From sequence record OZ335962.1: 64,000 nt of DNA; one strand, 5' to 3'. Position numbers and translations under genes: made by a program. The stretch comes from a phage. Under the pieces are notes generated by a model. That model made no database searches, was not told the origin of the DNA, and worked only from the letters and a program-made list of their open reading frames with translations. Below, piece after piece: positions 17 to 50,165 of the stretch; position 1 is the stretch's first letter; every line of letters begins with the position of its first letter.

Positions 17-865
17 TTAATCAACTGCTATTGGATGAATAGCATTAAACTTATGAAACGCTTCTGATTTTTCTTTGCGCGAAACACACATGCGAAGAAC
101 CTTTAATGGTTCGTCTTCTTCACCCAACGATTTTCTCTTTTCAATATTCAATGTTTTCCAACGAGCTTGCTCTGGAAACTCTCTATTGATTTGCTCAAGA
201 GCTCTATTATGTTTTGAATTACTACGAATTGAACTGCACCCGCCCGGAGCCTGTGCTTTTCCAGATACAACCAGATATTTGAACAAGGCCAAATGTGGAT
301 AACCTTGATTAATTAAATTGAGAAATGCATACATATCTTCGCATAAATCAATTTTTCCATACCCAATTTGTTCTGTCGTAAGTTTTCCGAGGTCATACCA
401 AGTATTCGTGAATCCATATGAATTTTCACGATAATTACCCCAAGATGAAGTAATTTTAAAAATAGGCAGACGAGCATGACCATGATAATACCCGCAATCC
501 ATGGCATCTTCAACGTATTGAATCAATTCATAGAACTGTTCACGAGTTAATTGATTAATTTTATCTACGCAGCGACGATCATCTTTCTTTCGCATTGAAC
601 TCATACGAATAGTAGTATCATCATCAATCATCCAAATTCGTTGACCTGCATACATATCAGTAATTGCTTTACGAGTACCAGCAATTCCGTTAACATCATC
701 AGGAATAGTTATAATTTTAGCTCTAGACCCGTAAGCGTCATAATAAGCCTTTTCTTCATGTTCACGTACTACAATATGTGGTTCATAATCAGTCGGAAAC
801 ATATCAAGGGCAGAAACTGCCCCTACGCGCTGATAGCTTGGAATTACGAATTGAATCATTTCCAC
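17..865 (-). CDS. GT-A fold glycosyltransferase, probable DNA hydroxymethylcytosine-glucose glycosyltransferase
   Basis: 282-aa ORF with N-terminal VIPSYQR and IDDD (DxD) motifs typical of family-2 glycosyltransferases; occupies the position of T4 beta-gt next to gene 42 but is not the GT-B beta-gt sequence, so possibly the beta-alpha-gt type of T2/T6-like phages (inference). Confidence 0.5.
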   Translation of the reverse strand: MEMIQFVIPSYQRVGAVSALDMFPTDYEPHIVVREHEEKAYYDAYGSRAKIITIPDDVNGIAGTRKAITDMYAGQRIWMIDDDTTIRMSSMRKKDDRRCVDKINQLTREQFYELIQYVEDAMDCGYYHGHARLPIFKITSSWGNYRENSYGFTNTWYDLGKLTTEQIGYGKIDLCEDMYAFLNLINQGYPHLALFKYLVVSGKAQAPGGCSSIRSNSKHNRALEQINREFPEQARWKTLNIEKRKSLGEEDEPLKVLRMCVSRKEKSEAFHKFNAIHPIAVD

Positions 866-1596
866 TCACCGTTATAATCTTTTTTCGCAATATGAGTTTC
901 GCCAGTTTTCCACCAATGGTCAACCAAATAAAAATGACGGGAATACACATGAAGGCTTCCGACATTCCATATAATGGAACCTGCTTTATACTGACGAGTT
1001 GAATCACCTGCATTCAAATCAGATACTAATTTATCTAGTACGTATTTTTGCCATGCATAATCATTACGGAATCCGAAGACCACGTCATTTGAACGCATGC
1101 TTACTACTGCATTGACTTTCTTATCACGAATCAGGTACTGTACTGTATTCGTACACATGAAATCTGACATACCATCTTTATTGTAGTCAAACTGCATGGA
1201 TGGACGAGTATAAATCATGATACCGCGTCGAGAATCAGGATTTTGACCAAGTTCAGCTAAACACATATCATACTGGGCATAGTTATCTTCTGACCAGATG
1301 GCCCAACCATAATTCGAGTTAATTTCGCCTTTAGAAGATGCTACCTGTTGCCAAATCTTTGGTGTTTCACCTGGAATATCTTTAACAAACAGACTTTGAG
1401 ACTTATACCATTCAAGTTCACGTTGAATGTATTCATCATTAAGAGCGCCAAAAATAAAAGGTTCATCTGCTACAAATGATGCACCAATAATTTCAATAGT
1501 TTTAACACCAGTTTTATCAATTACGAAATCTTTTTCCTTTAATGCAAGACCCAAATCAAGACGGATTTCTTCAACTGTCATATAATCGTTAATCAT
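856..1596 (-). CDS. 42: dCMP hydroxymethylase
   Basis: 246 aa, same length as T4 gp42; thymidylate-synthase-like fold implied by position between imm and the glycosyltransferase. Confidence 0.8.
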   Translation of the reverse strand: MINDYMTVEEIRLDLGLALKEKDFVIDKTGVKTIEIIGASFVADEPFIFGALNDEYIQRELEWYKSQSLFVKDIPGETPKIWQQVASSKGEINSNYGWAIWSEDNYAQYDMCLAELGQNPDSRRGIMIYTRPSMQFDYNKDGMSDFMCTNTVQYLIRDKKVNAVVSMRSNDVVFGFRNDYAWQKYVLDKLVSDLNAGDSTRQYKAGSIIWNVGSLHVYSRHFYLVDHWWKTGETHIAKKDYNGEWK

Positions 1597-1749
1597 TTAA
1601 ACCTCAATTGATGCATTCATATTTAACTTGTAACAGTAATAAACCCCAACCTATAATAAGTGTCGGAATCATACAAGGAACCGTTACGCTATAGTATATA
1701 CTTATTATAATCATCAAAATTAAAAGCAATACTGCTAAAATTTTGCTTT

Positions 1750-2001
1750 TCATTCCTTCTCTCTGATGATAATTACTTGGTTTTGCTGTGCAGATTTTTT
1801 AGTTTCACCCGCAATTGACCAAATAAATGTAATAAACCAACCAATAATTGACCAATTAAACAGTAAAGATGTGAAAAAGATTCCTACTGTCGATTTTGAC
1901 CCACGCATCAAGGCGATGAACCACGGAAGCATGTATATAATAATAGCCAACACGCCTGAAACTAAAACCATAAAAATTGAACCTGCTACTAAAGTTTCCA
2001 T
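1750..2001 (-). CDS. imm: Imm superinfection immunity membrane protein
   Basis: 83 aa (T4 Imm is 83 aa), two hydrophobic helices, located just downstream of gene 43. Confidence 0.75.
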   Translation of the reverse strand: METLVAGSIFMVLVSGVLAIIIYMLPWFIALMRGSKSTVGIFFTSLLFNWSIIGWFITFIWSIAGETKKSAQQNQVIIIREKE

Positions 2002-12000: not shown

Positions 12001-13201
12001 ATTTTGTAATAATGTCAAACTGTTCTTTAAAGCAGAAGCTTGAATCTTGATGCTGATACAAAAATTCATAAGCTTTTTCGCGTTCACGGTCATAAAGAGC
12101 TCGGTCAGATGACAGTTCTTTAATACGTTCAAATGTTGATTCCATGTCATTTTCATCAAACCAAACGATACCGCTATCATGTGAAATTAACGGAGTATTA
12201 TCAACACGGAATTTTAAATTTTCACCAGTAGATTTCCAAAATACTGGAATTGTTCCACATGCACCAAGCTCGAGATGAGTATATTCTAAAGAACGCTGTA
12301 GATATTTTTTGTCCAACTTACTCAGCTGATAACCAAATCCGGATTTACTCATGCGTTCAAGCATTTCGCTATTTACATAACGGTCAAGAATTTGCGTTGG
12401 CAAATTAGGAGCAATTTTAATTTGGTCTACTTGATGAAGACGATAATACTCATATGGAATTCCTTTTTCTTTAATAGGAATGAACGCTGGAGAACGTTCC
12501 AGACCTTCCATAATAGTACTTAGCCCAGCAGGTTTAAGATGTTTTTCGTGAAAATCAAACATCTGATAAAAACCTTTCCATGTAGTCGTACGACCAATCC
12601 AACGGTTGACATTCATGTTAATTTCAGAAACATCTTTCCAGTAGGTTGATCGAACCTTAGCAATATCCATAGGAGGCTGAAAGTTGTATACAGTCGGTGC
12701 TTCTTCAATATCGTCAAACAGTGAAACAGTTTCTGGATACCATTCTTTCATCAGAACTTTATTAAAATCACCATTATCAGAATGACTAAAAATAACATCA
12801 GCTCGGCGAACAGTTTCTTCTAATCCCAAATTTCGGCGCAAAGAAAGAGAAGAATGGTCATGTTGATAAACTACAACACGAACCGAAGGTTTAATGTTAT
12901 CAATAATTTTTTTATAGTTATTAATAGTGTCTTCTTCGACTGAAGTAGCAGGAACTGAATTGATAATTAGAATATCACAATCATTTACCAGCTTAAGTGT
13001 TTTATCGTATTCTTTTGCCAATAAAACCGGAATTGAAAATGATTTATAATCATGCGCGCAATTACGGGTAAATGATTTATCTTTAGCATAAACCAAAGTT
13101 ACTTCATGACCATTTTTAATAAACCAATCACGTTGCTCAAGAGAAAATTTAGTTACGCCACAACCTTCAAGACCTCGAGCCATAAAAATGCATACTTTCA
13201 T
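11999..13201 (-). CDS. a-gt: DNA alpha-glucosyltransferase
   Basis: 400 aa, closely matches recalled T4 alpha-gt (..CIFMARGLEGCGVTKFSLEQRDWFIKNGHEVTLVYAKDKSF...). Confidence 0.93.
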   Translation of the reverse strand: MKVCIFMARGLEGCGVTKFSLEQRDWFIKNGHEVTLVYAKDKSFTRNCAHDYKSFSIPVLLAKEYDKTLKLVNDCDILIINSVPATSVEEDTINNYKKIIDNIKPSVRVVVYQHDHSSLSLRRNLGLEETVRRADVIFSHSDNGDFNKVLMKEWYPETVSLFDDIEEAPTVYNFQPPMDIAKVRSTYWKDVSEINMNVNRWIGRTTTWKGFYQMFDFHEKHLKPAGLSTIMEGLERSPAFIPIKEKGIPYEYYRLHQVDQIKIAPNLPTQILDRYVNSEMLERMSKSGFGYQLSKLDKKYLQRSLEYTHLELGACGTIPVFWKSTGENLKFRVDNTPLISHDSGIVWFDENDMESTFERIKELSSDRALYDREREKAYEFLYQHQDSSFCFKEQFDIITK

Positions 13202-13225
13202 TTAATATCCTCATTGTTTTGGTTT

Positions 13226-17540: not shown

Positions 17541-18011
17541 TTAATCATGTTTCCACACCCCATCGGTATTTGACCAAAGTCGCTGATTATCTGATCCTCG
17601 CCACAGCTTTTTGGTCGGAAGATTTTTCTCATACTTCCCATCAATAATAACATCAACATATTTAAGCATTTCTAGTTGTTTAATATCTTCAAACTTATAT
17701 CCTGTCCACAACCAAATGCTTTTATTGGGATAAAGATTTTTTACTGTTTGAACAATGCAATGAATAACATCTCGGTTATCAGGATAAAGAGGGTCACCTC
17801 CAGTTATAGTTAATCCTTCTATATAATCATTATTCAAACATTCAATTAATTGTTCTAGTGTTTCACCAGTGAATGGAACGCCATTTCTAGCATTCCATGT
17901 TGATTTATTATAACACCCTTCGCATTTATGCAAACAACCTGTAACGAAAAGAACGACCCTGCATCCAGGGCCATTCACAAAATCGCAGGGATAAAATCTA
18001 TCGTAATTCAT
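17541..18011 (-). CDS. nrdG: anaerobic ribonucleotide reductase activating protein (radical SAM)
   Basis: 156 aa as in T4 NrdG; CxxxCxxC cluster (CLHKCEGC). Confidence 0.9.
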   Translation of the reverse strand: MNYDRFYPCDFVNGPGCRVVLFVTGCLHKCEGCYNKSTWNARNGVPFTGETLEQLIECLNNDYIEGLTITGGDPLYPDNRDVIHCIVQTVKNLYPNKSIWLWTGYKFEDIKQLEMLKYVDVIIDGKYEKNLPTKKLWRGSDNQRLWSNTDGVWKHD

Positions 18012-19825
18012 TGGTGTTTAACCCTATGCATGATTTCTTTATTTTTGCCGAGATTAAATCCGCGTTCGTTCGGATTTCCCAAATAACCACAAGTTCTTCT
18101 TATTGTGTTCATCTTTTTAGGATCAGTTTCTCCACAAATAGAACAAACAAATCCGTTTTCAGTAGGAGTCATTTCATGTGTACTTCCACACGTAAAACAT
18201 TTATCTACTGGCATATTAACACCAAAATAATCTAAATGTTGTGCAGCATAATCCCATACAGCCTCAAGACCTTTTAGGTTATTTTTCATATCAGGAAGTT
18301 CAACATAAGAAATGTGACCACCTGTCGCAATGAAATGATATGGTGCTTCTCGAGAAATCTTTTCAAACGGAGTAATATTTTCTTCTACTGAAACGTGGAA
18401 ACTATTAGTGTACCATCCTTTATCAGTAACATCTTTTACACTTCCATATTTCTCAGTATCAAGTTTACAGAAGCGATAGCACAGATTTTCAGCAGGTGTA
18501 GAATACAAACTAAAAGCAAAACCGGTTCTTTCAGTCCACTGTTTAAGACGAGCATTCATTTTAGTTAAAATTTCCTGTCCAATATCACGACCGACAAGAA
18601 TATTCAATTCGTGAATACCAATGTATCCTAAGGACACTGAACTTCTACCGTTTTTAAATAACTCAATTATGTCGTCATCAGGTTTAAGACGAACCCCGAA
18701 TGCACCTTCTTGGTAAAGAATAGGAGCAACAATCGCTTTAACTCCTTTTAAGGAACTAATTCTACACATCAAAGCTTCAAAACACAAATCCATTCGTTCA
18801 TTGAACAATTCGGCAAATTTCTGTTCATTGAATTGTGTTCCAATATAAGAATCTAACGCAATACGAGGAAGATTCAGTGTTACAACACCAAGATTATTAC
18901 GTCCATCAAGAATTTCATTACCAGTCGAATCTTTCCATACGCTTAAGAAACTACGGCAACCCATTGGAGAAACAGGAATAGATGAACCGGTGATAGCTTT
19001 ATTGTTCTTAGCTGAAATAATATCAGGATACATTCTTTTGCTTGCACACTCTAAAGCAAGCTGCTTAATATCATAGTTCGGATCATCTTTATAAAGATTA
19101 ACACCTTCTTCAACGAACATAACAAGTTTAGGGAAAATAGGAGTTATCCCATCGCGACCAAGGCCTTTAATACGATTTTTCAGAATTGCTTTCTGAATCA
19201 TTCGTTCAGTCCAGTCAGTTCCAGTACCAAATGTAATTGTTACAAAAGGCGTTTGTCCGTTTGAACTAAAGAGAGTATTTACTTCATATTCATAAGCTTG
19301 GAATGCATCGTATACGTCTTTTTCTGTTTTAGATTGGGCGTAATTCAACGCATCAGCGATTTGCCATTTTTCTGCATCCTCAATATGTTTTGCATAGGTG
19401 CGTTTAACATAAGGAGAAAGTACTTTATCTACATTCGCAAAAGTCGTTCCACCATATTGATGAGAAGCAACCTGCGCAGTAATTTGTGCCATAATTGCAG
19501 TAGCAACGCCGATTGATTTAGGAGTTTCAATCTGCGCATTACCGAGCTTAAATCCATTCTCAAGCATTCCTTTTAAATCTACTAAACAGCAATTAGTAAA
19601 TGGAAGAGCAGGTGAATAATCAATATCATGGAAATGAATAATTCCGCTTTCATGCGCTTTCATAATAAAAGACGGGACCATATTTTTGGCAATGTGTTTA
19701 GACACAATACCAGCCATAAGGTCCCGTTGAGTTGGAAAAACACGAGAATCTTTATTAGCATTCTCGTTTAAAAGGTCTTTATTAGTTTTATGAATCAATC
19801 CTTCAATTTCTTTTTCAATTGTCAT
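18008..19825 (-). CDS. nrdD: anaerobic ribonucleoside-triphosphate reductase
   Basis: 605 aa as in T4 NrdD; C-terminal glycyl-radical motif RTCGYLG and Zn ribbon CxxC..CxxC; the ORF is continuous, with no intron. Confidence 0.95.
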   Translation of the reverse strand: MTIEKEIEGLIHKTNKDLLNENANKDSRVFPTQRDLMAGIVSKHIAKNMVPSFIMKAHESGIIHFHDIDYSPALPFTNCCLVDLKGMLENGFKLGNAQIETPKSIGVATAIMAQITAQVASHQYGGTTFANVDKVLSPYVKRTYAKHIEDAEKWQIADALNYAQSKTEKDVYDAFQAYEYEVNTLFSSNGQTPFVTITFGTGTDWTERMIQKAILKNRIKGLGRDGITPIFPKLVMFVEEGVNLYKDDPNYDIKQLALECASKRMYPDIISAKNNKAITGSSIPVSPMGCRSFLSVWKDSTGNEILDGRNNLGVVTLNLPRIALDSYIGTQFNEQKFAELFNERMDLCFEALMCRISSLKGVKAIVAPILYQEGAFGVRLKPDDDIIELFKNGRSSVSLGYIGIHELNILVGRDIGQEILTKMNARLKQWTERTGFAFSLYSTPAENLCYRFCKLDTEKYGSVKDVTDKGWYTNSFHVSVEENITPFEKISREAPYHFIATGGHISYVELPDMKNNLKGLEAVWDYAAQHLDYFGVNMPVDKCFTCGSTHEMTPTENGFVCSICGETDPKKMNTIRRTCGYLGNPNERGFNLGKNKEIMHRVKHQ

Positions 19826-29403: not shown

Positions 29404-30417
29404 TCATTTATAATAACTTCGATGGTTTTCAAGATAAATCCTCTCAAGGAAGTCATCCCAGAAACCCATGTCTACTTTTTGCTGCATACCGTTCTTAGAA
29501 GCTTCAATGGAAGCTGCTTCTACTTGATCGACTACATCTTCCAAAAACTCTTGAACAGTTTTAAATGGATGTTTACCCAACTTCACGTCGAGAATAAATG
29601 GAGCATCTTGAAGTGGATAGACTAAGTCACCAGTTTTGTAAATTTCCAATAGTTGGAGTCCACCACGGCAAGCATGACTCAGAGCTTTCCAGTCAATGCC
29701 CTCATTAGCTTCGGCCTTACGAGCGCGTTCGCCGTATTCAGCATCAAGTTTATTCAAAGATTGCTTAAGCTCGATAAGAGAAAGCGTTGTTTGATATTTA
29801 CGACCCAACACGGTGTAGAACGTTTGTGGTCCTGTTTTCTCATGATTATGGAATACCCATTCACAGAATTCGTTCTCTGGAAGACGATGCTTAATATCTT
29901 CAACTTTAGTTCGACGCTGCTTAATGGAACCGTCTTCTTGGTAATCAACCCATTGCTCAGGGATTTGATTAACTACTTTCAATACATCACGTAATGCGGC
30001 CAAACGAGAACCCTTGACACCATATTTAGAAGCTTGCTTGCGAACATATCCTAAATAGGATTTCATGTTAGTCGTATAAAAACGAGAACGATTGTCTTGA
30101 ATAAACTTCCATACATCAGGCAAATCAGATTTAACTACCAGTTCAGGTGGAGTATGGAGCATATCCAATGCTACAGTTTCACCATCTGCTGCTAATTTAA
30201 AGAAATACTTAAGACTGTATAGTTCATGGTCAATATCATCTTTAGTGTTTTTAGATGATGTGTTGTTAGTGTTTTTACTCATATGCTCTTTAACATTTCC
30301 GATAAGAATATCACGAGCAGGAGGAACAAAGATTTCTTTAAAATCTACATCAGATTCTGGAGTAGAAGTTCCATAAAGATGACTACCAAAATAGCTTTTC
30401 ATTACTGTTTTCATCAT
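29404..30417 (-). CDS. putative nucleotidyltransferase (Pol-beta superfamily-like)
   Basis: 337 aa; N-terminal GSHLYGTSTPESDVDF resembles the GS...DxD nucleotidyltransferase motif; terminator hairpin downstream. Confidence 0.45.
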   Translation of the reverse strand: MMKTVMKSYFGSHLYGTSTPESDVDFKEIFVPPARDILIGNVKEHMSKNTNNTSSKNTKDDIDHELYSLKYFFKLAADGETVALDMLHTPPELVVKSDLPDVWKFIQDNRSRFYTTNMKSYLGYVRKQASKYGVKGSRLAALRDVLKVVNQIPEQWVDYQEDGSIKQRRTKVEDIKHRLPENEFCEWVFHNHEKTGPQTFYTVLGRKYQTTLSLIELKQSLNKLDAEYGERARKAEANEGIDWKALSHACRGGLQLLEIYKTGDLVYPLQDAPFILDVKLGKHPFKTVQEFLEDVVDQVEAASIEASKNGMQQKVDMGFWDDFLERIYLENHRSYYK

Positions 30418-30875
30418 TCAGCCTTATATTCAATAACAGGACATACTTTAGCTTTACGCGCTTTTAAAAATTCGACGATAATAGATTTCTTGGGTTGAAT
30501 AGGAGGTAAACCTTTATACGCCCTATCAATATTTTCTACATGTAAAGCATAATCCTTTTTCCATTTATAATCTTTATATTTTTCATGCAGTTGTGCAGGA
30601 ATAACAAATGAACCAATAATAAGTAAAACAAGCAAAATGGCAAGTATAAATGCTGATGGAATAAGAGTCCATAAACTACCAAAAATAAGCCATTTCTGTA
30701 TGATTTCTGCACAGATAATAGTTAGACCTGCGAGTATAGTACATCCGAAAAAAGAAACGAAAAATGCAGGGATAACAATAGACCAAAAATATGCACAAAG
30801 TGTCTTAGGTCGTTTCCATTCGTCGTTAAACATTTTGAATAATTTATAATGCCAAGAGTTTTCATTAATAATCAT
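30414..30875 (-). CDS. hypothetical membrane protein
   Basis: 153 aa with 2-3 predicted transmembrane helices. Confidence 0.5.
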   Translation of the reverse strand: MIINENSWHYKLFKMFNDEWKRPKTLCAYFWSIVIPAFFVSFFGCTILAGLTIICAEIIQKWLIFGSLWTLIPSAFILAILLVLLIIGSFVIPAQLHEKYKDYKWKKDYALHVENIDRAYKGLPPIQPKKSIIVEFLKARKAKVCPVIEYKAE

Positions 30876-30877
30876 AA

Positions 30878-31399
30878 TTATCCTTTCATTGAAGGTGTAA
30901 CAGTTGTTAAATACTTAATCATAGCTTCAGCTTCTGATTTTGATAATGAAATTTCTCCATTATTTTGACGAATAGAAATAAAATCCGGATGACGGTCACC
31001 ACCAGCTTTTAAAACACACATATAAGTATCAGTTTCATCTTCAATATTTGAAATGATTGAAGCAGTTCCACATGAATGTGGTTTTTGATAAACTAATACA
31101 GCTTTTCTTCCACCGTTTGACTGTTCATAAACTTTTAATACATCAAACAAATCACTTCTTTTATCAATAGCTAAGATGTTGTTTTCATCTTCAATGTTAA
31201 ATCCTTCGGATACTTCATAAAGTGTCACCCATAAATCGCCAATATCAATAACAGCGTTCACTTTTCCATGACTTTCAAGAGCATGACAAATTTTCTTGAT
31301 TTCATCATAACTCATTTTAATAATATCATCTCCTTGAATAAGAAAGATGTCATTTTTAAATTCAACACGAATTAAACCGCTTTCACTTGAAATAAACAT
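30878..31399 (-). CDS. hypothetical protein, paralog of the next ORF
   Basis: 173 aa; C-terminal EAEAMIKYLTTVTPSM resembles EAIALKTYLDSVIPTM of the upstream ORF. Confidence 0.5.
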   Translation of the reverse strand: MFISSESGLIRVEFKNDIFLIQGDDIIKMSYDEIKKICHALESHGKVNAVIDIGDLWVTLYEVSEGFNIEDENNILAIDKRSDLFDVLKVYEQSNGGRKAVLVYQKPHSCGTASIISNIEDETDTYMCVLKAGGDRHPDFISIRQNNGEISLSKSEAEAMIKYLTTVTPSMKG

Positions 31400-39287: not shown

Positions 39288-39761
39288 TTATTTGAATGAT
39301 TTGACGTACTGAATAGAGCCTTTGCTATTCACGAAAGCGATTTTACCATTTTTGTTATACATGGTAGCAGTACGCTGATAGCCATAAGTTTGCTTACCAG
39401 ATTGATAACCAACTAGTGCGAAATTATCTTCACCCATTTTATTCTGCTTAGCGCGGATACGTTCATGACCGTGCGCCATAAGAACCTTAGCATCACCAGT
39501 TGCAATGGATCTACGAGTTTTTTCATCTTCAACTGTATTAACAAAGTCGTCAAATGAATCAAATTTAGCATGAGATTTATTATACAGTTTTCCATCTACT
39601 GCATAATTATATCCCTGTACATCCATCTCAACTTCTGTACCATCATCTAATACAGCAGTGATTTTTTGACCTTTTTTAAATTTCAAAAGATCAGTAAAAG
39701 ATTCAGCAATAATTTGAGAATTAATAGCTGCTTCAGTGATAAATTCTTGATATGTTTTCAT
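39288..39761 (-). CDS. internal protein (capsid-targeted, CTS-bearing)
   Basis: 157 aa beginning MKTYQEFITEA, the capsid targeting sequence consensus of T4 internal proteins; adjacent to denV and e like the T4 ipII/ipIII locus. Confidence 0.7.
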   Translation of the reverse strand: MKTYQEFITEAAINSQIIAESFTDLLKFKKGQKITAVLDDGTEVEMDVQGYNYAVDGKLYNKSHAKFDSFDDFVNTVEDEKTRRSIATGDAKVLMAHGHERIRAKQNKMGEDNFALVGYQSGKQTYGYQRTATMYNKNGKIAFVNSKGSIQYVKSFK

Positions 39762-44518: not shown

Positions 44519-44992
44519 TTATTTGATTTGTTTAGCAGACCAAATGCGGTCTTTAATAATTTTTTGAATGTCTTCAACATACTCAAGAGAGTGAACGTGT
44601 GGATTATCTTTGAAACTATAAGCACGGGCTAACTTTTGGCCTTCGGTTTTGATTACTAAAAGCTCTTTAAGGATAGCTTCATATTTAGCGATAATTCCTT
44701 TAACGATATTTTTTTCTTGTGCCGCTTTAGGATCTGCTTTAGGAGCAGGTTTACCCGAAGGCTTTGCAAAAGCAGCTCCAGTAGCAACTAAACTTTTCCA
44801 GGCCATACTAACTGCATTTCCCGTAAATCCTTCTGCTTTCATGTCGCGAGCAAATTGGAATCGTGATTCGTCAGAAGCATCTTTATAGGAATATTTACCC
44901 GCTGCAATGGCTGCTTTTGCGACAGCTTGAATTTCGGTGCTAGATGCTTCATTTAACACCGCTTCATTTAAAAATTGAGCATATGATTTCAT
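44519..44992 (-). CDS. internal-protein-like (CTS-bearing) protein
   Basis: 157 aa beginning MKSYAQFLNEA (CTS-like); flanked by near-identical terminator hairpins and preceded by a TATAAATA late promoter. Confidence 0.6.
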   Translation of the reverse strand: MKSYAQFLNEAVLNEASSTEIQAVAKAAIAAGKYSYKDASDESRFQFARDMKAEGFTGNAVSMAWKSLVATGAAFAKPSGKPAPKADPKAAQEKNIVKGIIAKYEAILKELLVIKTEGQKLARAYSFKDNPHVHSLEYVEDIQKIIKDRIWSAKQIK

Positions 44993-45376: not shown

Positions 45377-45727
45377 TTAATATTCTTTTAAAGTATCAAT
45401 CTGTTCACGACGTTTACGCCATAAATCAATTGCTTCATACGCAGATTCAGCATTTCTAATTAGTCGGCATTTGTGTAAAGACTTATGATTTTGATATTGT
45501 GTAGATAACGGAATTTTATCTAAAAGGTCTTTACGTTCAAAGTATTCATAACCATCTAAGCCAAATGAACGATTTTTAAGAAATTGCCAATGACCGTATT
45601 CGTTTTCGACATAAACATAATCTGCGTGCTGATAAAGCAAATTAATTACACGTTCAGAAATAACAGTGTCATTATGATTAAAATAGAATGTTAAATCATG
45701 AACTACTAAATAAACATTACCTTTCAT
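45377..45727 (-). CDS. hypothetical protein
   Basis: 116-aa ORF immediately downstream of tRNA-Arg. Confidence 0.45.
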   Translation of the reverse strand: MKGNVYLVVHDLTFYFNHNDTVISERVINLLYQHADYVYVENEYGHWQFLKNRSFGLDGYEYFERKDLLDKIPLSTQYQNHKSLHKCRLIRNAESAYEAIDLWRKRREQIDTLKEY

Positions 45728-45743
45728 ATTTTCCTCACTTAAT

Positions 45744-45819
45744 TGGTCGAGGCAGTAGGGATCGAACCTACGACCCAGGACTTAGAAGGTCCTTGCTCTT
45801 CCTTCTGAGCTATGCCTCG
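45744..45819 (-). tRNA. tRNA-Arg (anticodon UCU)
   Basis: 76-nt cloverleaf folded by eye: anticodon loop CTTCTAA, T-loop TTCGATC, CCA encoded. Confidence 0.9.
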
Positions 45820-45823
45820 GATT

Positions 45824-45898
45824 TGGCGGACGTGATAGGATTCGAACCTATAACCAATCGCTTAACAGGCGATCGCTCTGCCATTGAGCTACACATCC
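45824..45898 (-). tRNA. tRNA-Asn (anticodon GUU)
   Basis: 75-nt cloverleaf: acceptor GGATGTG/CACGTCC, anticodon stem ATCGC/GCGAT, loop CTGTTAA, T-loop TTCGAAT, CCA encoded. Confidence 0.8.
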
Positions 45899-45902
45899 AA
45901 AT

Positions 45903-45989
45903 TGGTGGGGAGTGATGGAGTCGAACCACCCGAGTCGCAATGACAATGGATTTACAGTCCACACCGCTACCTCTACGGGATAACTCCCC
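45903..45989 (-). tRNA. tRNA-Tyr (anticodon GUA), class II
   Basis: 87 nt: acceptor GGGGAGT/ACTCCCC, anticodon loop CTGTAAA, long variable arm, T-loop TTCGACT, CCA encoded. Confidence 0.75.
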
Positions 45990-45998
45990 AAATTAATT

Positions 45999-46073
45999 TG
46001 GTGGCCCTGGGTGGAATTGAACCACCATCTGGCGATTATGAGTCGCTTGCTTGAACCTTCCAGCTACAGGGCC
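45999..46073 (-). tRNA. tRNA-Ile (anticodon CAU, AUA-reading type)
   Basis: Matches recalled T4 tRNA-Ile (GGCCCTGTAGCTGGAAGG...CTCATAATCG...). Confidence 0.9.
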
Positions 46074-46074
46074 T

Positions 46075-46150
46075 TGGTGCTGATTGACGGAATCGAACCG
46101 CCGACCTTCTCATTACAAGTGAGTTGCTCTACCTACTGAGCTAAATCAGC
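46075..46150 (-). tRNA. tRNA-Thr (anticodon UGU)
   Basis: Matches recalled T4 tRNA-Thr (GCTGATTTAGCTCAGTAGG...). Confidence 0.92.
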
Positions 46151-46155
46151 AAAAC

Positions 46156-46245
46156 TGGCGGAGGCGATAGGATTTGAACCTATGAGTCGCCGGAGCGACT
46201 GCCGGTTTTCAAGACCGGTGCATTAAACCACTCTGCCACGCCTCC
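46156..46245 (-). tRNA. tRNA-Ser (anticodon UGA), class II
   Basis: 90 nt with long variable arm; anticodon loop CTTGAAA. Confidence 0.88.
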
Positions 46246-46247
46246 AG

Positions 46248-46321
46248 TCTCCATACAAGGATTTGAACCTTGGACCTCCTGATCCCAAATCAGGCGCTCT
46301 ACCAAACTGAGCTACACGGAG
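46248..46321 (-). tRNA. tRNA-Pro (anticodon UGG)
   Basis: Matches recalled T4 tRNA-Pro; anticodon loop TTTGGGA; 3' CCA not encoded. Confidence 0.88.
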
Positions 46322-46331
46322 TAAATTAAAT

Positions 46332-46405
<74 letters not shown>

Positions 46406-46410
46406 AAATT

Positions 46411-46497
46411 TGGTGCGAGAAGTGGGACTCGAACCCACAAGGAAATCATTCCGCAGCATTTTAAGTGCTGTGCCTTTACCAATTTGACCATTCTCGC
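46411..46497 (-). tRNA. tRNA-Leu (anticodon UAA), class II
   Basis: Matches recalled T4 tRNA-Leu (GCGAGAATGGTCAAATTGG...). Confidence 0.92.
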
Positions 46498-46498
46498 G

Positions 46499-46571
46499 CT
46501 GGGAATAAAGGACTCGAACCTTTGCATCCTGGAATCAAAATCCAGTGCCTTACCAACTTGGCTAATTCCCA
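46499..46571 (-). tRNA. tRNA-Gln (anticodon UUG)
   Basis: Cloverleaf with anticodon loop TTTTGAT; abuts tRNA-Leu as a dimeric precursor; CCA not fully encoded. Confidence 0.88.
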
Positions 46572-48111: not shown

Positions 48112-48345
48112 TTATTTTTTACGAAAAATTGATTTATTTTCTGCTGCCCATTTTTCAATAACTGCAGCAGGACCAGTAACAACAATTTTATCACCGTAAT
48201 CTTCTGCGGCGAGTTGACCGAAATTATCTAATGCATCACGAAGAACTCCATGAGGCATTTCACCCATTTTATCTTTCTTGCCGGTGTAAATAAACTCAAC
48301 TTTTACATCAGAAGATTCAGCGATAAATTCTTGATAAGTTTTCAT
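48112..48345 (-). CDS. internal protein (CTS-bearing), ipI-locus gene A
   Basis: About 77 aa from MKTYQEFIAESS (CTS consensus); own early-type promoter upstream; position next to 57B as T4 ipI. Confidence 0.65.
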   Translation of the reverse strand: MKTYQEFIAESSDVKVEFIYTGKKDKMGEMPHGVLRDALDNFGQLAAEDYGDKIVVTGPAAVIEKWAAENKSIFRKK

Positions 48346-48424: not shown

Positions 48425-48682
48425 TTATTTTAAATCTTCTAATCGTTTCTTCATCTTAGAACCATTTTTAGCAATTTCTCCTGCATCGGAGCATAATGCT
48501 AAAAGTGCTTTAACTTTCGTTTGGTCTCCTTTAAAAGATGAAGGATCTACTGCAGCAGCAAGTTCTTTAATACGAGAGAAAAGACGCTCAGCTTCAGCTA
48601 AAGCCATTCCAAGCTTTACTTCCATACCGTGGGAAGATTCAGTGATAGTAGTTTTTGCAGCAAACTCTTTGAAAGTTTTCAT
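48425..48682 (-). CDS. internal-protein-like (CTS-like), ipI-locus gene B
   Basis: 85 aa beginning MKTFKEFAAKT; AGGAAA RBS; own early-type promoter upstream. Confidence 0.6.
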   Translation of the reverse strand: MKTFKEFAAKTTITESSHGMEVKLGMALAEAERLFSRIKELAAAVDPSSFKGDQTKVKALLALCSDAGEIAKNGSKMKKRLEDLK

Positions 48683-49439: not shown

Positions 49440-49440
<1 letters not shown>

Positions 49441-50165
49441 TATAGTACCTTTAGTGTATTTTTAATTTTAGAAAAAAGTTCTTCAAGAGAACCATCGTTT
49501 GTAATTACTAAATCGCCATCACGAATTGGCAATCCAGCTTCTGTAATATGAGTATCATTGGATTTTTGACCAGGACGAACTACATGAATTACTGTAGCAC
49601 CCATCGCCCTAGCCGCATCCATTTCATGATCTTGACGAGTATCAGGAACGATATAATAATCATAACCTGAGTTAAATTTATCAAGATAATCTAAAGCAAA
49701 TAATTTTACCCAATACATGCGGTCGAAGTTATTAACAATCAAATCCGTACCTAGGGCTTGCATCAGACGACGGATTGACCATTGATCTTCAATATTATTT
49801 ATAACGTCAGCAATCTTGTTAAATGCTACGAAATTAACTGATTCTTTTCCTTCGTCATCAAAAACAAACACACCTTTAATTGGGCTTTTACTATTAAGAT
49901 AGCAAAATGCTTGTTCCATAATCGTAATTACTTCTAATTTAGTCAGATTTAAATTAGTCTCACGATCATAGTCAATTCCTTCAAACTCTCTACGAGTTAA
50001 GCAAGGATAGTCAGTGTTTGCTGCAAATACAGACCATGCATAAGCCAATGCATCCTTAATAGGACCAGCAAGTTGATATTTAACTGCAGAATAATTATTC
50101 ATGATAAAATCTGCAGTAGTATCTTTTCCACTACGCTTTACACCACTTAAAAAGATTAGTTTCAT
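49440..50165 (-). CDS. 1: deoxynucleoside monophosphate kinase
   Basis: 241 aa as in T4 gp1; P-loop GVKRSGKDT. Confidence 0.9.

Follow-up and report, generated by a model that had tools for sequence, protein, structure and literature searches.

The first gene in the 64,000-nucleotide stretch of phage DNA analysed here (sequence record OZ335962.1, hereafter the window) almost certainly encodes a T2/T6-type beta-glucosyl-HMC-alpha-glucosyltransferase (ba-gt), an enzyme with a GT-A fold that belongs to the Pfam TAGT family. It is a cassette that occupies the slot of segA and beta-gt in T4, since homology to T4 starts only at nucleotide 874. Gene, family, fold and synteny are all already known, and so is the effect on DNA modification. 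The gene described here is an ordinary one, because it is about 98–99% identical to characterised copies and is found in hundreds of sequenced T4-like phages. The original cloning paper is reportedly that of Winkler and Ruger from 1993. The finding opens no new question; its practical value lies in a correct annotation and a predicted modification type, for restriction enzymes, sequencing chemistry and host range.

An earlier sequence-only reading had pointed to an open reading frame of 282 amino acids at 17–865, next to gene 42. The frame is present in the list of open reading frames and in the translation read directly, on the minus strand and starting with GTG. The GTG at 865 is probably not the start and was set aside; the ATG at 859–857, which leads to a protein of 280 amino acids and a stop codon at 17–19, was preferred. 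The gene does adjoin gene 42: the gene 42 stop codon (TGA, 858–856) and this ATG are joined in a four-nucleotide overlap, ATGA (856..859, minus strand), and the junction reads GGTGAGTGGAAATGATTCAA. The identical ATG, a coding sequence of 843 nucleotides and the four-nucleotide overlap are annotated in phages ime09, T2, Solly, Geo and EL, and because the annotators of these five use them, the 280-residue protein is most likely the real product. The overlap suggests co-transcription and translational coupling of ba-gt with gene 42. The frame is not a chance one, since 691 phage records contain it as a conserved gene. Features of the window are collected in Table 1.

Table 1. Location of ba-gt, its motifs, its partner genes and other features in the window.
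Feature	Position	Strand	Evidence or remark
ba-gt / ggt / TAGT (beta-glucosyl-HMC-alpha-glucosyltransferase)	17..859	-	280 aa + stop
PSYQR, N-terminal motif, residues 7-11	827..841	-	family alignment and model
D79-D80-D81 (GAT GAT GAT), DXD-type metal/UDP-binding motif	617..625	-	alignment and model
E174-D175 ('CEDMY')	335..340	-	D175 invariant in family alignment
Gene 42, dCMP hydroxymethylase	856..1596	-	Pfam Thymidylat_synt, E=1.1e-15
49-aa hydrophobic ORF, gap between gene 42 and imm	1604-1753	-	150-nt 'phage protein' in Solly, Geo and EL
alpha-gt, DNA alpha-glucosyltransferase (GT-B, GT72), 400 aa	11999..13201	-	Pfam AGT PF11440, E=5.2e-236
Gene 1, dNMP kinase (phosphorylates hm-dCMP)	49440..50165	-	tblastn with T4 gp1, 97.5% over 241 aa
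Other internal-virion-protein genes at IP loci	48112-48345, 48425-48682, 39288-39761, 44519-44992	-	PHROG 8111, 3499, 3155, possibly 2280
tRNA cluster, ten genes (Arg, Asn, Tyr, Met, Thr, Ser, Pro, Gly, Leu, Gln)	45744-46571	-	
T4 homing-endonuclease loci	13192-13217, 17991-18011, 19287-19290, 30419-31380, 45378-46053, 55003-55008		genes absent

A megablast search with nucleotides 1–1600 returned 505 phage records, 475 of which span most of the query at 90–98% identity. Tequatrovirus phages of Escherichia, Shigella and Yersinia account for nearly all of them, and the frame is labelled 'beta-glucosyl-HMC-alpha-glucosyl-transferase' in many; the best database matches are about 97% identical to the window in nucleotide sequence. 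With the protein as tblastn query, 473 of the 691 records showed at least 90% identity, and a second group at about 64–66% identity was made up of T4-like phages of Klebsiella, Enterobacter and Salmonella. The protein matches PHROG 842 (beta-glucosyl-HMC-alpha-glucosyl-transferase) with an E-value of 4.6e-89, residues 2–277 being covered, and Pfam PF20691, 'TET-Associated Glycosyltransferase' (TAGT), with 38.8 bits against a cutoff of 27.5, over positions 2–205 of the 205 in the profile. The proposal that it is a second glucosyltransferase of the T2/T6 type, to be checked by alignment, is borne out by these matches, by synteny and by identities over the 280 residues of 98.2% to the T2 enzyme and 97.5% to that of T6.

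Identity to the Solly protein is 98.9%, and the ime09 protein differs at one position. Going from the window to T2 there are five substitutions (R11H, K92R, I101V, L237S and P251S), identical in two independent T2 records, and going to T6 there are six (Y40N, D55G, K92R, I101V, R106H and L237S). The three that separate it from Solly (K92R, I101V and L237S) are all at non-conserved positions. Leucine 237 is absent from every compared sequence; it sits in a variable, low-confidence carboxy-terminal stretch and does not point to a new property.

The motifs VIPSYQR and IDDD, which had drawn attention to the frame, are residues 5–11 and 78–81 of the 280-residue form, as read from the translation. 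The homologue search returned 11 clusters, and nine sequences were fed to the structure model. In the family alignment of ba-gt with eight homologues of 29–78% identity, the invariant columns include P7, S8, Y9, R11, D79, D80, D81, D175, G206, G207, S209 and R212. The PSYQR motif, located in the model in strand E3-7 and the loop that follows, is presumed to be the nucleotide-sugar binding start of the GT-A fold. The three aspartates of the DDD motif, encoded as GATGATGAT (nucleotides 617–625), are invariant down to 29% identity. Like PSYQR and DDD, a GG.S..R motif is common to the window, T2 and T6 enzymes. By analogy with the 'ED' catalytic-base motifs of GT2 enzymes, we infer that D175 is a candidate for the catalytic base of an inverting GT-A enzyme.

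The predicted structure is of moderate confidence, with a mean pLDDT of 72.5 and a pTM of 0.74. The amino-terminal two thirds are confident; values below 50 are found at residues 135–151 and 195–211. Its fold matches are WrtF (10.3), BcsA (10.1), RmlT (9.6) and TarP (PDB entry 6H1J; 9.4), with GlfT2, hyaluronan synthase, TarS and SpsA lower among them. In the model the acidic DXD-type motif comes directly after the strand of residues 74–77, which is the usual place of the DXD in GT-A enzymes, and the fold prediction thus confirms the GT-A assignment made from sequence. The accompanying label 'family-2' stood in part only. At the level of the fold it is apt, the enzyme belonging to a structural sister group of GT2. 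Strict membership of glycosyltransferase family 2 was rejected, since hmmscan against Pfam at E<=1 gave only TAGT and a sub-threshold RNA_binding match and no Glycos_transf_2 (PF00535). A sequence search of the PDB with the 280-residue protein found no relative, only a single chance match with an E-value of 0.44. In a 2026 NAR paper, the T2/T6 enzyme is placed in PF20691 and its AlphaFold3 model is described as GT-A, sister to GT2, with TarP (6H1J) closest (PMC13216743).

The gene lies immediately downstream of gene 42, while the uvsX side of the locus lies outside the window. The TAGT position is syntenic with that of T4 beta-GT (PMC13390438), and this shared place beside gene 42 is all that speaks for a divergent T4 beta-gt (GT-B, GT63) attaching beta-glucose directly to hmC. 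Such an identity has practically no likelihood, being refuted by four comparisons. T4 beta-gt finds no tblastn match anywhere in the 64-kb window at E<=10, in line with the earlier description of the frame as unlike T4 beta-gt. The contrast in length, likewise noted before, also holds, with 351 amino acids (a coding sequence of 1056 nucleotides) in T4 against 280, or 282 from the GTG, here. The fold is GT-A, and the window has nucleotide homology to T4 only from nucleotide 874, at the end of gene 42, with none to the left of it.

The window also contains gene 42 and alpha-gt, the two enzymes that a T2/T6-type transferase needs for its acceptor. Gene 42 aligns colinearly with its T4 counterpart, with 94.8% nucleotide identity from nucleotide 874 on, and is annotated likewise in the matching phages. 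The alpha-gt gene had been recognised as T4-like, correctly so: its product matches the AGT profile over its full length (1–355 of 355) and is 98.8% identical to the T2, 99.2% to the Solly and about 91% to the T4 and T6 proteins (a range of 90.8–98.8% across T4, T6 and T2). The T-even alpha-gt proteins form two allele groups about 91% identical to each other, one with the window, T2 and Solly and the other with T4, T6, Geo and EL. A further glycosyltransferase was sought in the segments of the window without T4 homology and none was found; the frames examined there all belong to known PHROG families, of internal virion proteins or of unknown function. The combination of TAGT with alpha-GT (or beta-GT) is the usual one; only six phages, T4 among them, have alpha-GT with beta-GT, and only one of 753 phages has all three types (PMC13216743).

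In the proposed pathway, gene 42 would supply hm-dCMP, which the gene 1 product would phosphorylate, and hmC would enter the DNA at replication. Alpha-gt would then attach a glucose in alpha linkage to the hmC of duplex DNA, providing the acceptor for ba-gt, whose expression would be tied to that of gene 42 by the ATGA overlap. Ba-gt would add a second glucose from UDP-glucose, beta-1,6 onto the first, resulting in alpha-gentiobiosyl-hmC. This transfer is assigned by orthology, from the literature on the orthologues. From the fold and from the formation of a beta product from UDP-alpha-glucose, we infer an inverting, metal- and DXD-dependent mechanism, with DDD 79–81 as the motif and D175 as probable base. 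Deletion of ba-gt from T6 leaves DNA with alpha-glucosyl-hmC only, which is more sensitive to the Brig1 glycosylase (PMC11078745); the same deletion mutant was used in a later preprint. Ten Tequatroviruses with alpha-GT and TAGT, and no beta-GT, contain hmdC, alpha-glucosyl-mdC and alpha-gentiobiosyl-mdC, and no beta-glucosyl form (2026 AEM, PMC13390438).

It is very improbable that the protein is a GT-A enzyme with a different donor or acceptor, one that would place another sugar on hmC, act directly on bare hmC (a proposal made for TET-associated TAGTs) or have a non-DNA target. The TAGT family is diverse, some phages having distant TAGTs but neither alpha- nor beta-GT (PMC13216743), and the Pfam score is modest; however, only 3–7 differences, at non-conserved positions, separate the protein from those of Solly, T6 and T2, phages in which gentiobiosyl DNA has been measured. 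In addition, about 25–33% of the hmC stays bare in gentiobiosyl phages, so ba-gt is evidently inactive on bare hmC.

How much of the hmC carries two glucoses differs between phages with nearly the same genes. The DNA of Solly (Escherichia phage vB_Eco_Solly, from the Durham collection) contains about one third 5hmdC and about two thirds alpha-gentiobiosyl-mdC, with mono-glucosyl forms at background only (PMC13390438). T2 DNA contains about 70% mono-alpha-glucosyl and about 5% gentiobiosyl forms (PMC11078745, PMC13390438). The DNA of the window phage is probably like that of Solly or T6, heavily diglucosylated, rather than like that of T2. Because alpha-gt and ba-gt hardly differ from their Solly counterparts and Arg11 is unchanged, gentiobiosyl-hmC is predicted to be the main form in its virion DNA, with about one third of the hmC bare and little mono-alpha-glucosyl-hmC. 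No beta-glucosyl-hmC is predicted, a statement based on the 64-kb window, which is part of the genome. As a deduction from sequence, the quantitative pattern is a weak prediction, since T2 has a nearly identical gene pair and only its small gentiobiosyl fraction.

The T2 composition itself, the T2 allele type of the window alpha-gt (98.8% identity to T2 against 91% to T6) and the close similarity of the two ba-gt proteins would fit a ba-gt that works as weakly as in T2, leaving about 70% mono-alpha-glucosyl-hmC and a few percent gentiobiosyl-hmC. We consider this rather unlikely. The window protein has R11 and P251, where both T2 records (AP018813, 2283-3125(-); PV648363, 201-1043(+), positions in the compared stretches) have H11 and S251. 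R11 is invariant in the family down to 29% identity, and at both T2-specific positions the window matches Solly, not T2. Solly combines an alpha-gt of the T2 type (99.5% identical) with a consensus ba-gt and reaches about two thirds gentiobiosyl.

R11H and P251S are the only differences between the ba-gt proteins of Solly and T2. It is possible, as a tentative reading, that the ba-gt allele sets the ratio of mono- to di-glucosylated hmC and that the low gentiobiosyl content of T2 comes from a hypomorphic R11H enzyme. The Durham phages Geo, EL and BGP have an intermediate composition despite an intact R11 (PMC13390438; R11 from sequence comparison), so determinants beyond these residues exist. 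If the allele does set the ratio, sequence alone would predict the window phage, with R11 and P251, to be T6/Solly-like; this would add a modest point on the structure and function of an enzyme already known and would not make the window gene a new one.

Both public T6 genome records contain an apparent lesion in ba-gt. In MH550421 (2138-2980(-)) codon 10 is changed from CAG to an amber TAG, and the gene is annotated from Met20, with 261 amino acids. In AP018814 (2135-2974(-)) one aspartate of the invariant DDD is missing (WMI-DDTT), which leaves 279 amino acids. As T6 is the textbook 72%-gentiobiosyl phage, the stocks may be attenuated or the records in error. The sequences suggest that laboratory stocks may repeatedly attenuate the second glucosylation.

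Which of the host defences can detect the phage DNA depends on the pattern of sugars that hmC carries. The Brig1 glycosylase does not cut gentiobiosyl-hmC, which is also resistant to the BapA deglucosylase, while mono-alpha-glucosyl-hmC is sensitive (PMC11078745; bioRxiv 10.64898/2026.02.25.707755), and GmrSD/BrxU-type enzymes cut all these hmC forms (PMC13390438). The hmC that stays bare, roughly 25–33%, remains a target for hmC-specific enzymes.

The T4 internal proteins IPI, IPII and IPIII have homology in the window only in their first 10–26 residues, the capsid-targeting peptide of the MKTYQEFIAE type, and other internal-virion-protein genes are found at their loci. Proteins of the IPI type are inhibitors of GmrSD enzymes directed against glucosylated hmC DNA, and the replacement of the internal proteins therefore bears on GmrSD-type sensitivity. 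The span contains none of its T4 homing-endonuclease genes: mobB, mobC, mobD, segB, segC and I-TevII are missing, the last together with the nrdD group I intron. Where T4 has mobD, the window has two unrelated frames, 30414-30875 (a membrane protein, PHROG 944) and 30878-31399 (PHROG 1502). Scans of the window for Rfam families and tRNAs gave the tRNA cluster only. The T4 set comprises eight tRNAs; Asn and Tyr are additional in the window, segB is absent from the cluster, and a tRNA with anticodon CAT (Met according to ARAGORN) is located at the position of the T4-annotated tRNA-Ile. Between gene 42 and imm, where the window has a frame for a 49-residue hydrophobic protein, T4 has a gap of 153 nucleotides and no annotation.

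When ba-gt is compared with known glucosyltransferases, the T4 beta-glucosyltransferase (GT63, PDB entry 1JG7) occupies the same slot beside gene 42 and is likewise a UDP-glucose-dependent, inverting DNA glucosyltransferase that forms a beta linkage, properties that are ascribed to ba-gt by orthology and from its fold. The T4 enzyme differs in being GT-B, larger and without sequence similarity, and in acting on bare hmC (PMC13216743), where the acceptor of ba-gt would, by orthology, be alpha-glucosyl-hmC. Cellular GT-A enzymes of the GT2 family, such as TarP (6H1J), BcsA and SpsA, are 7–17% identical to ba-gt; unlike them, ba-gt would have as its acceptor a sugar on duplex DNA. The ba-gt proteins of T2 and T6 have the same length of 280 residues, the same position after gene 42 with the ATGA overlap and the same partner, alpha-gt. 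Solly, an isolate different from the window phage, has the same gene order, with 99.2% identity in alpha-gt and 98.9% in ba-gt; its DNA composition is a measured one, that of the window phage a predicted one. Nothing suggests a functional difference between the window ba-gt and that of T6 or Solly.
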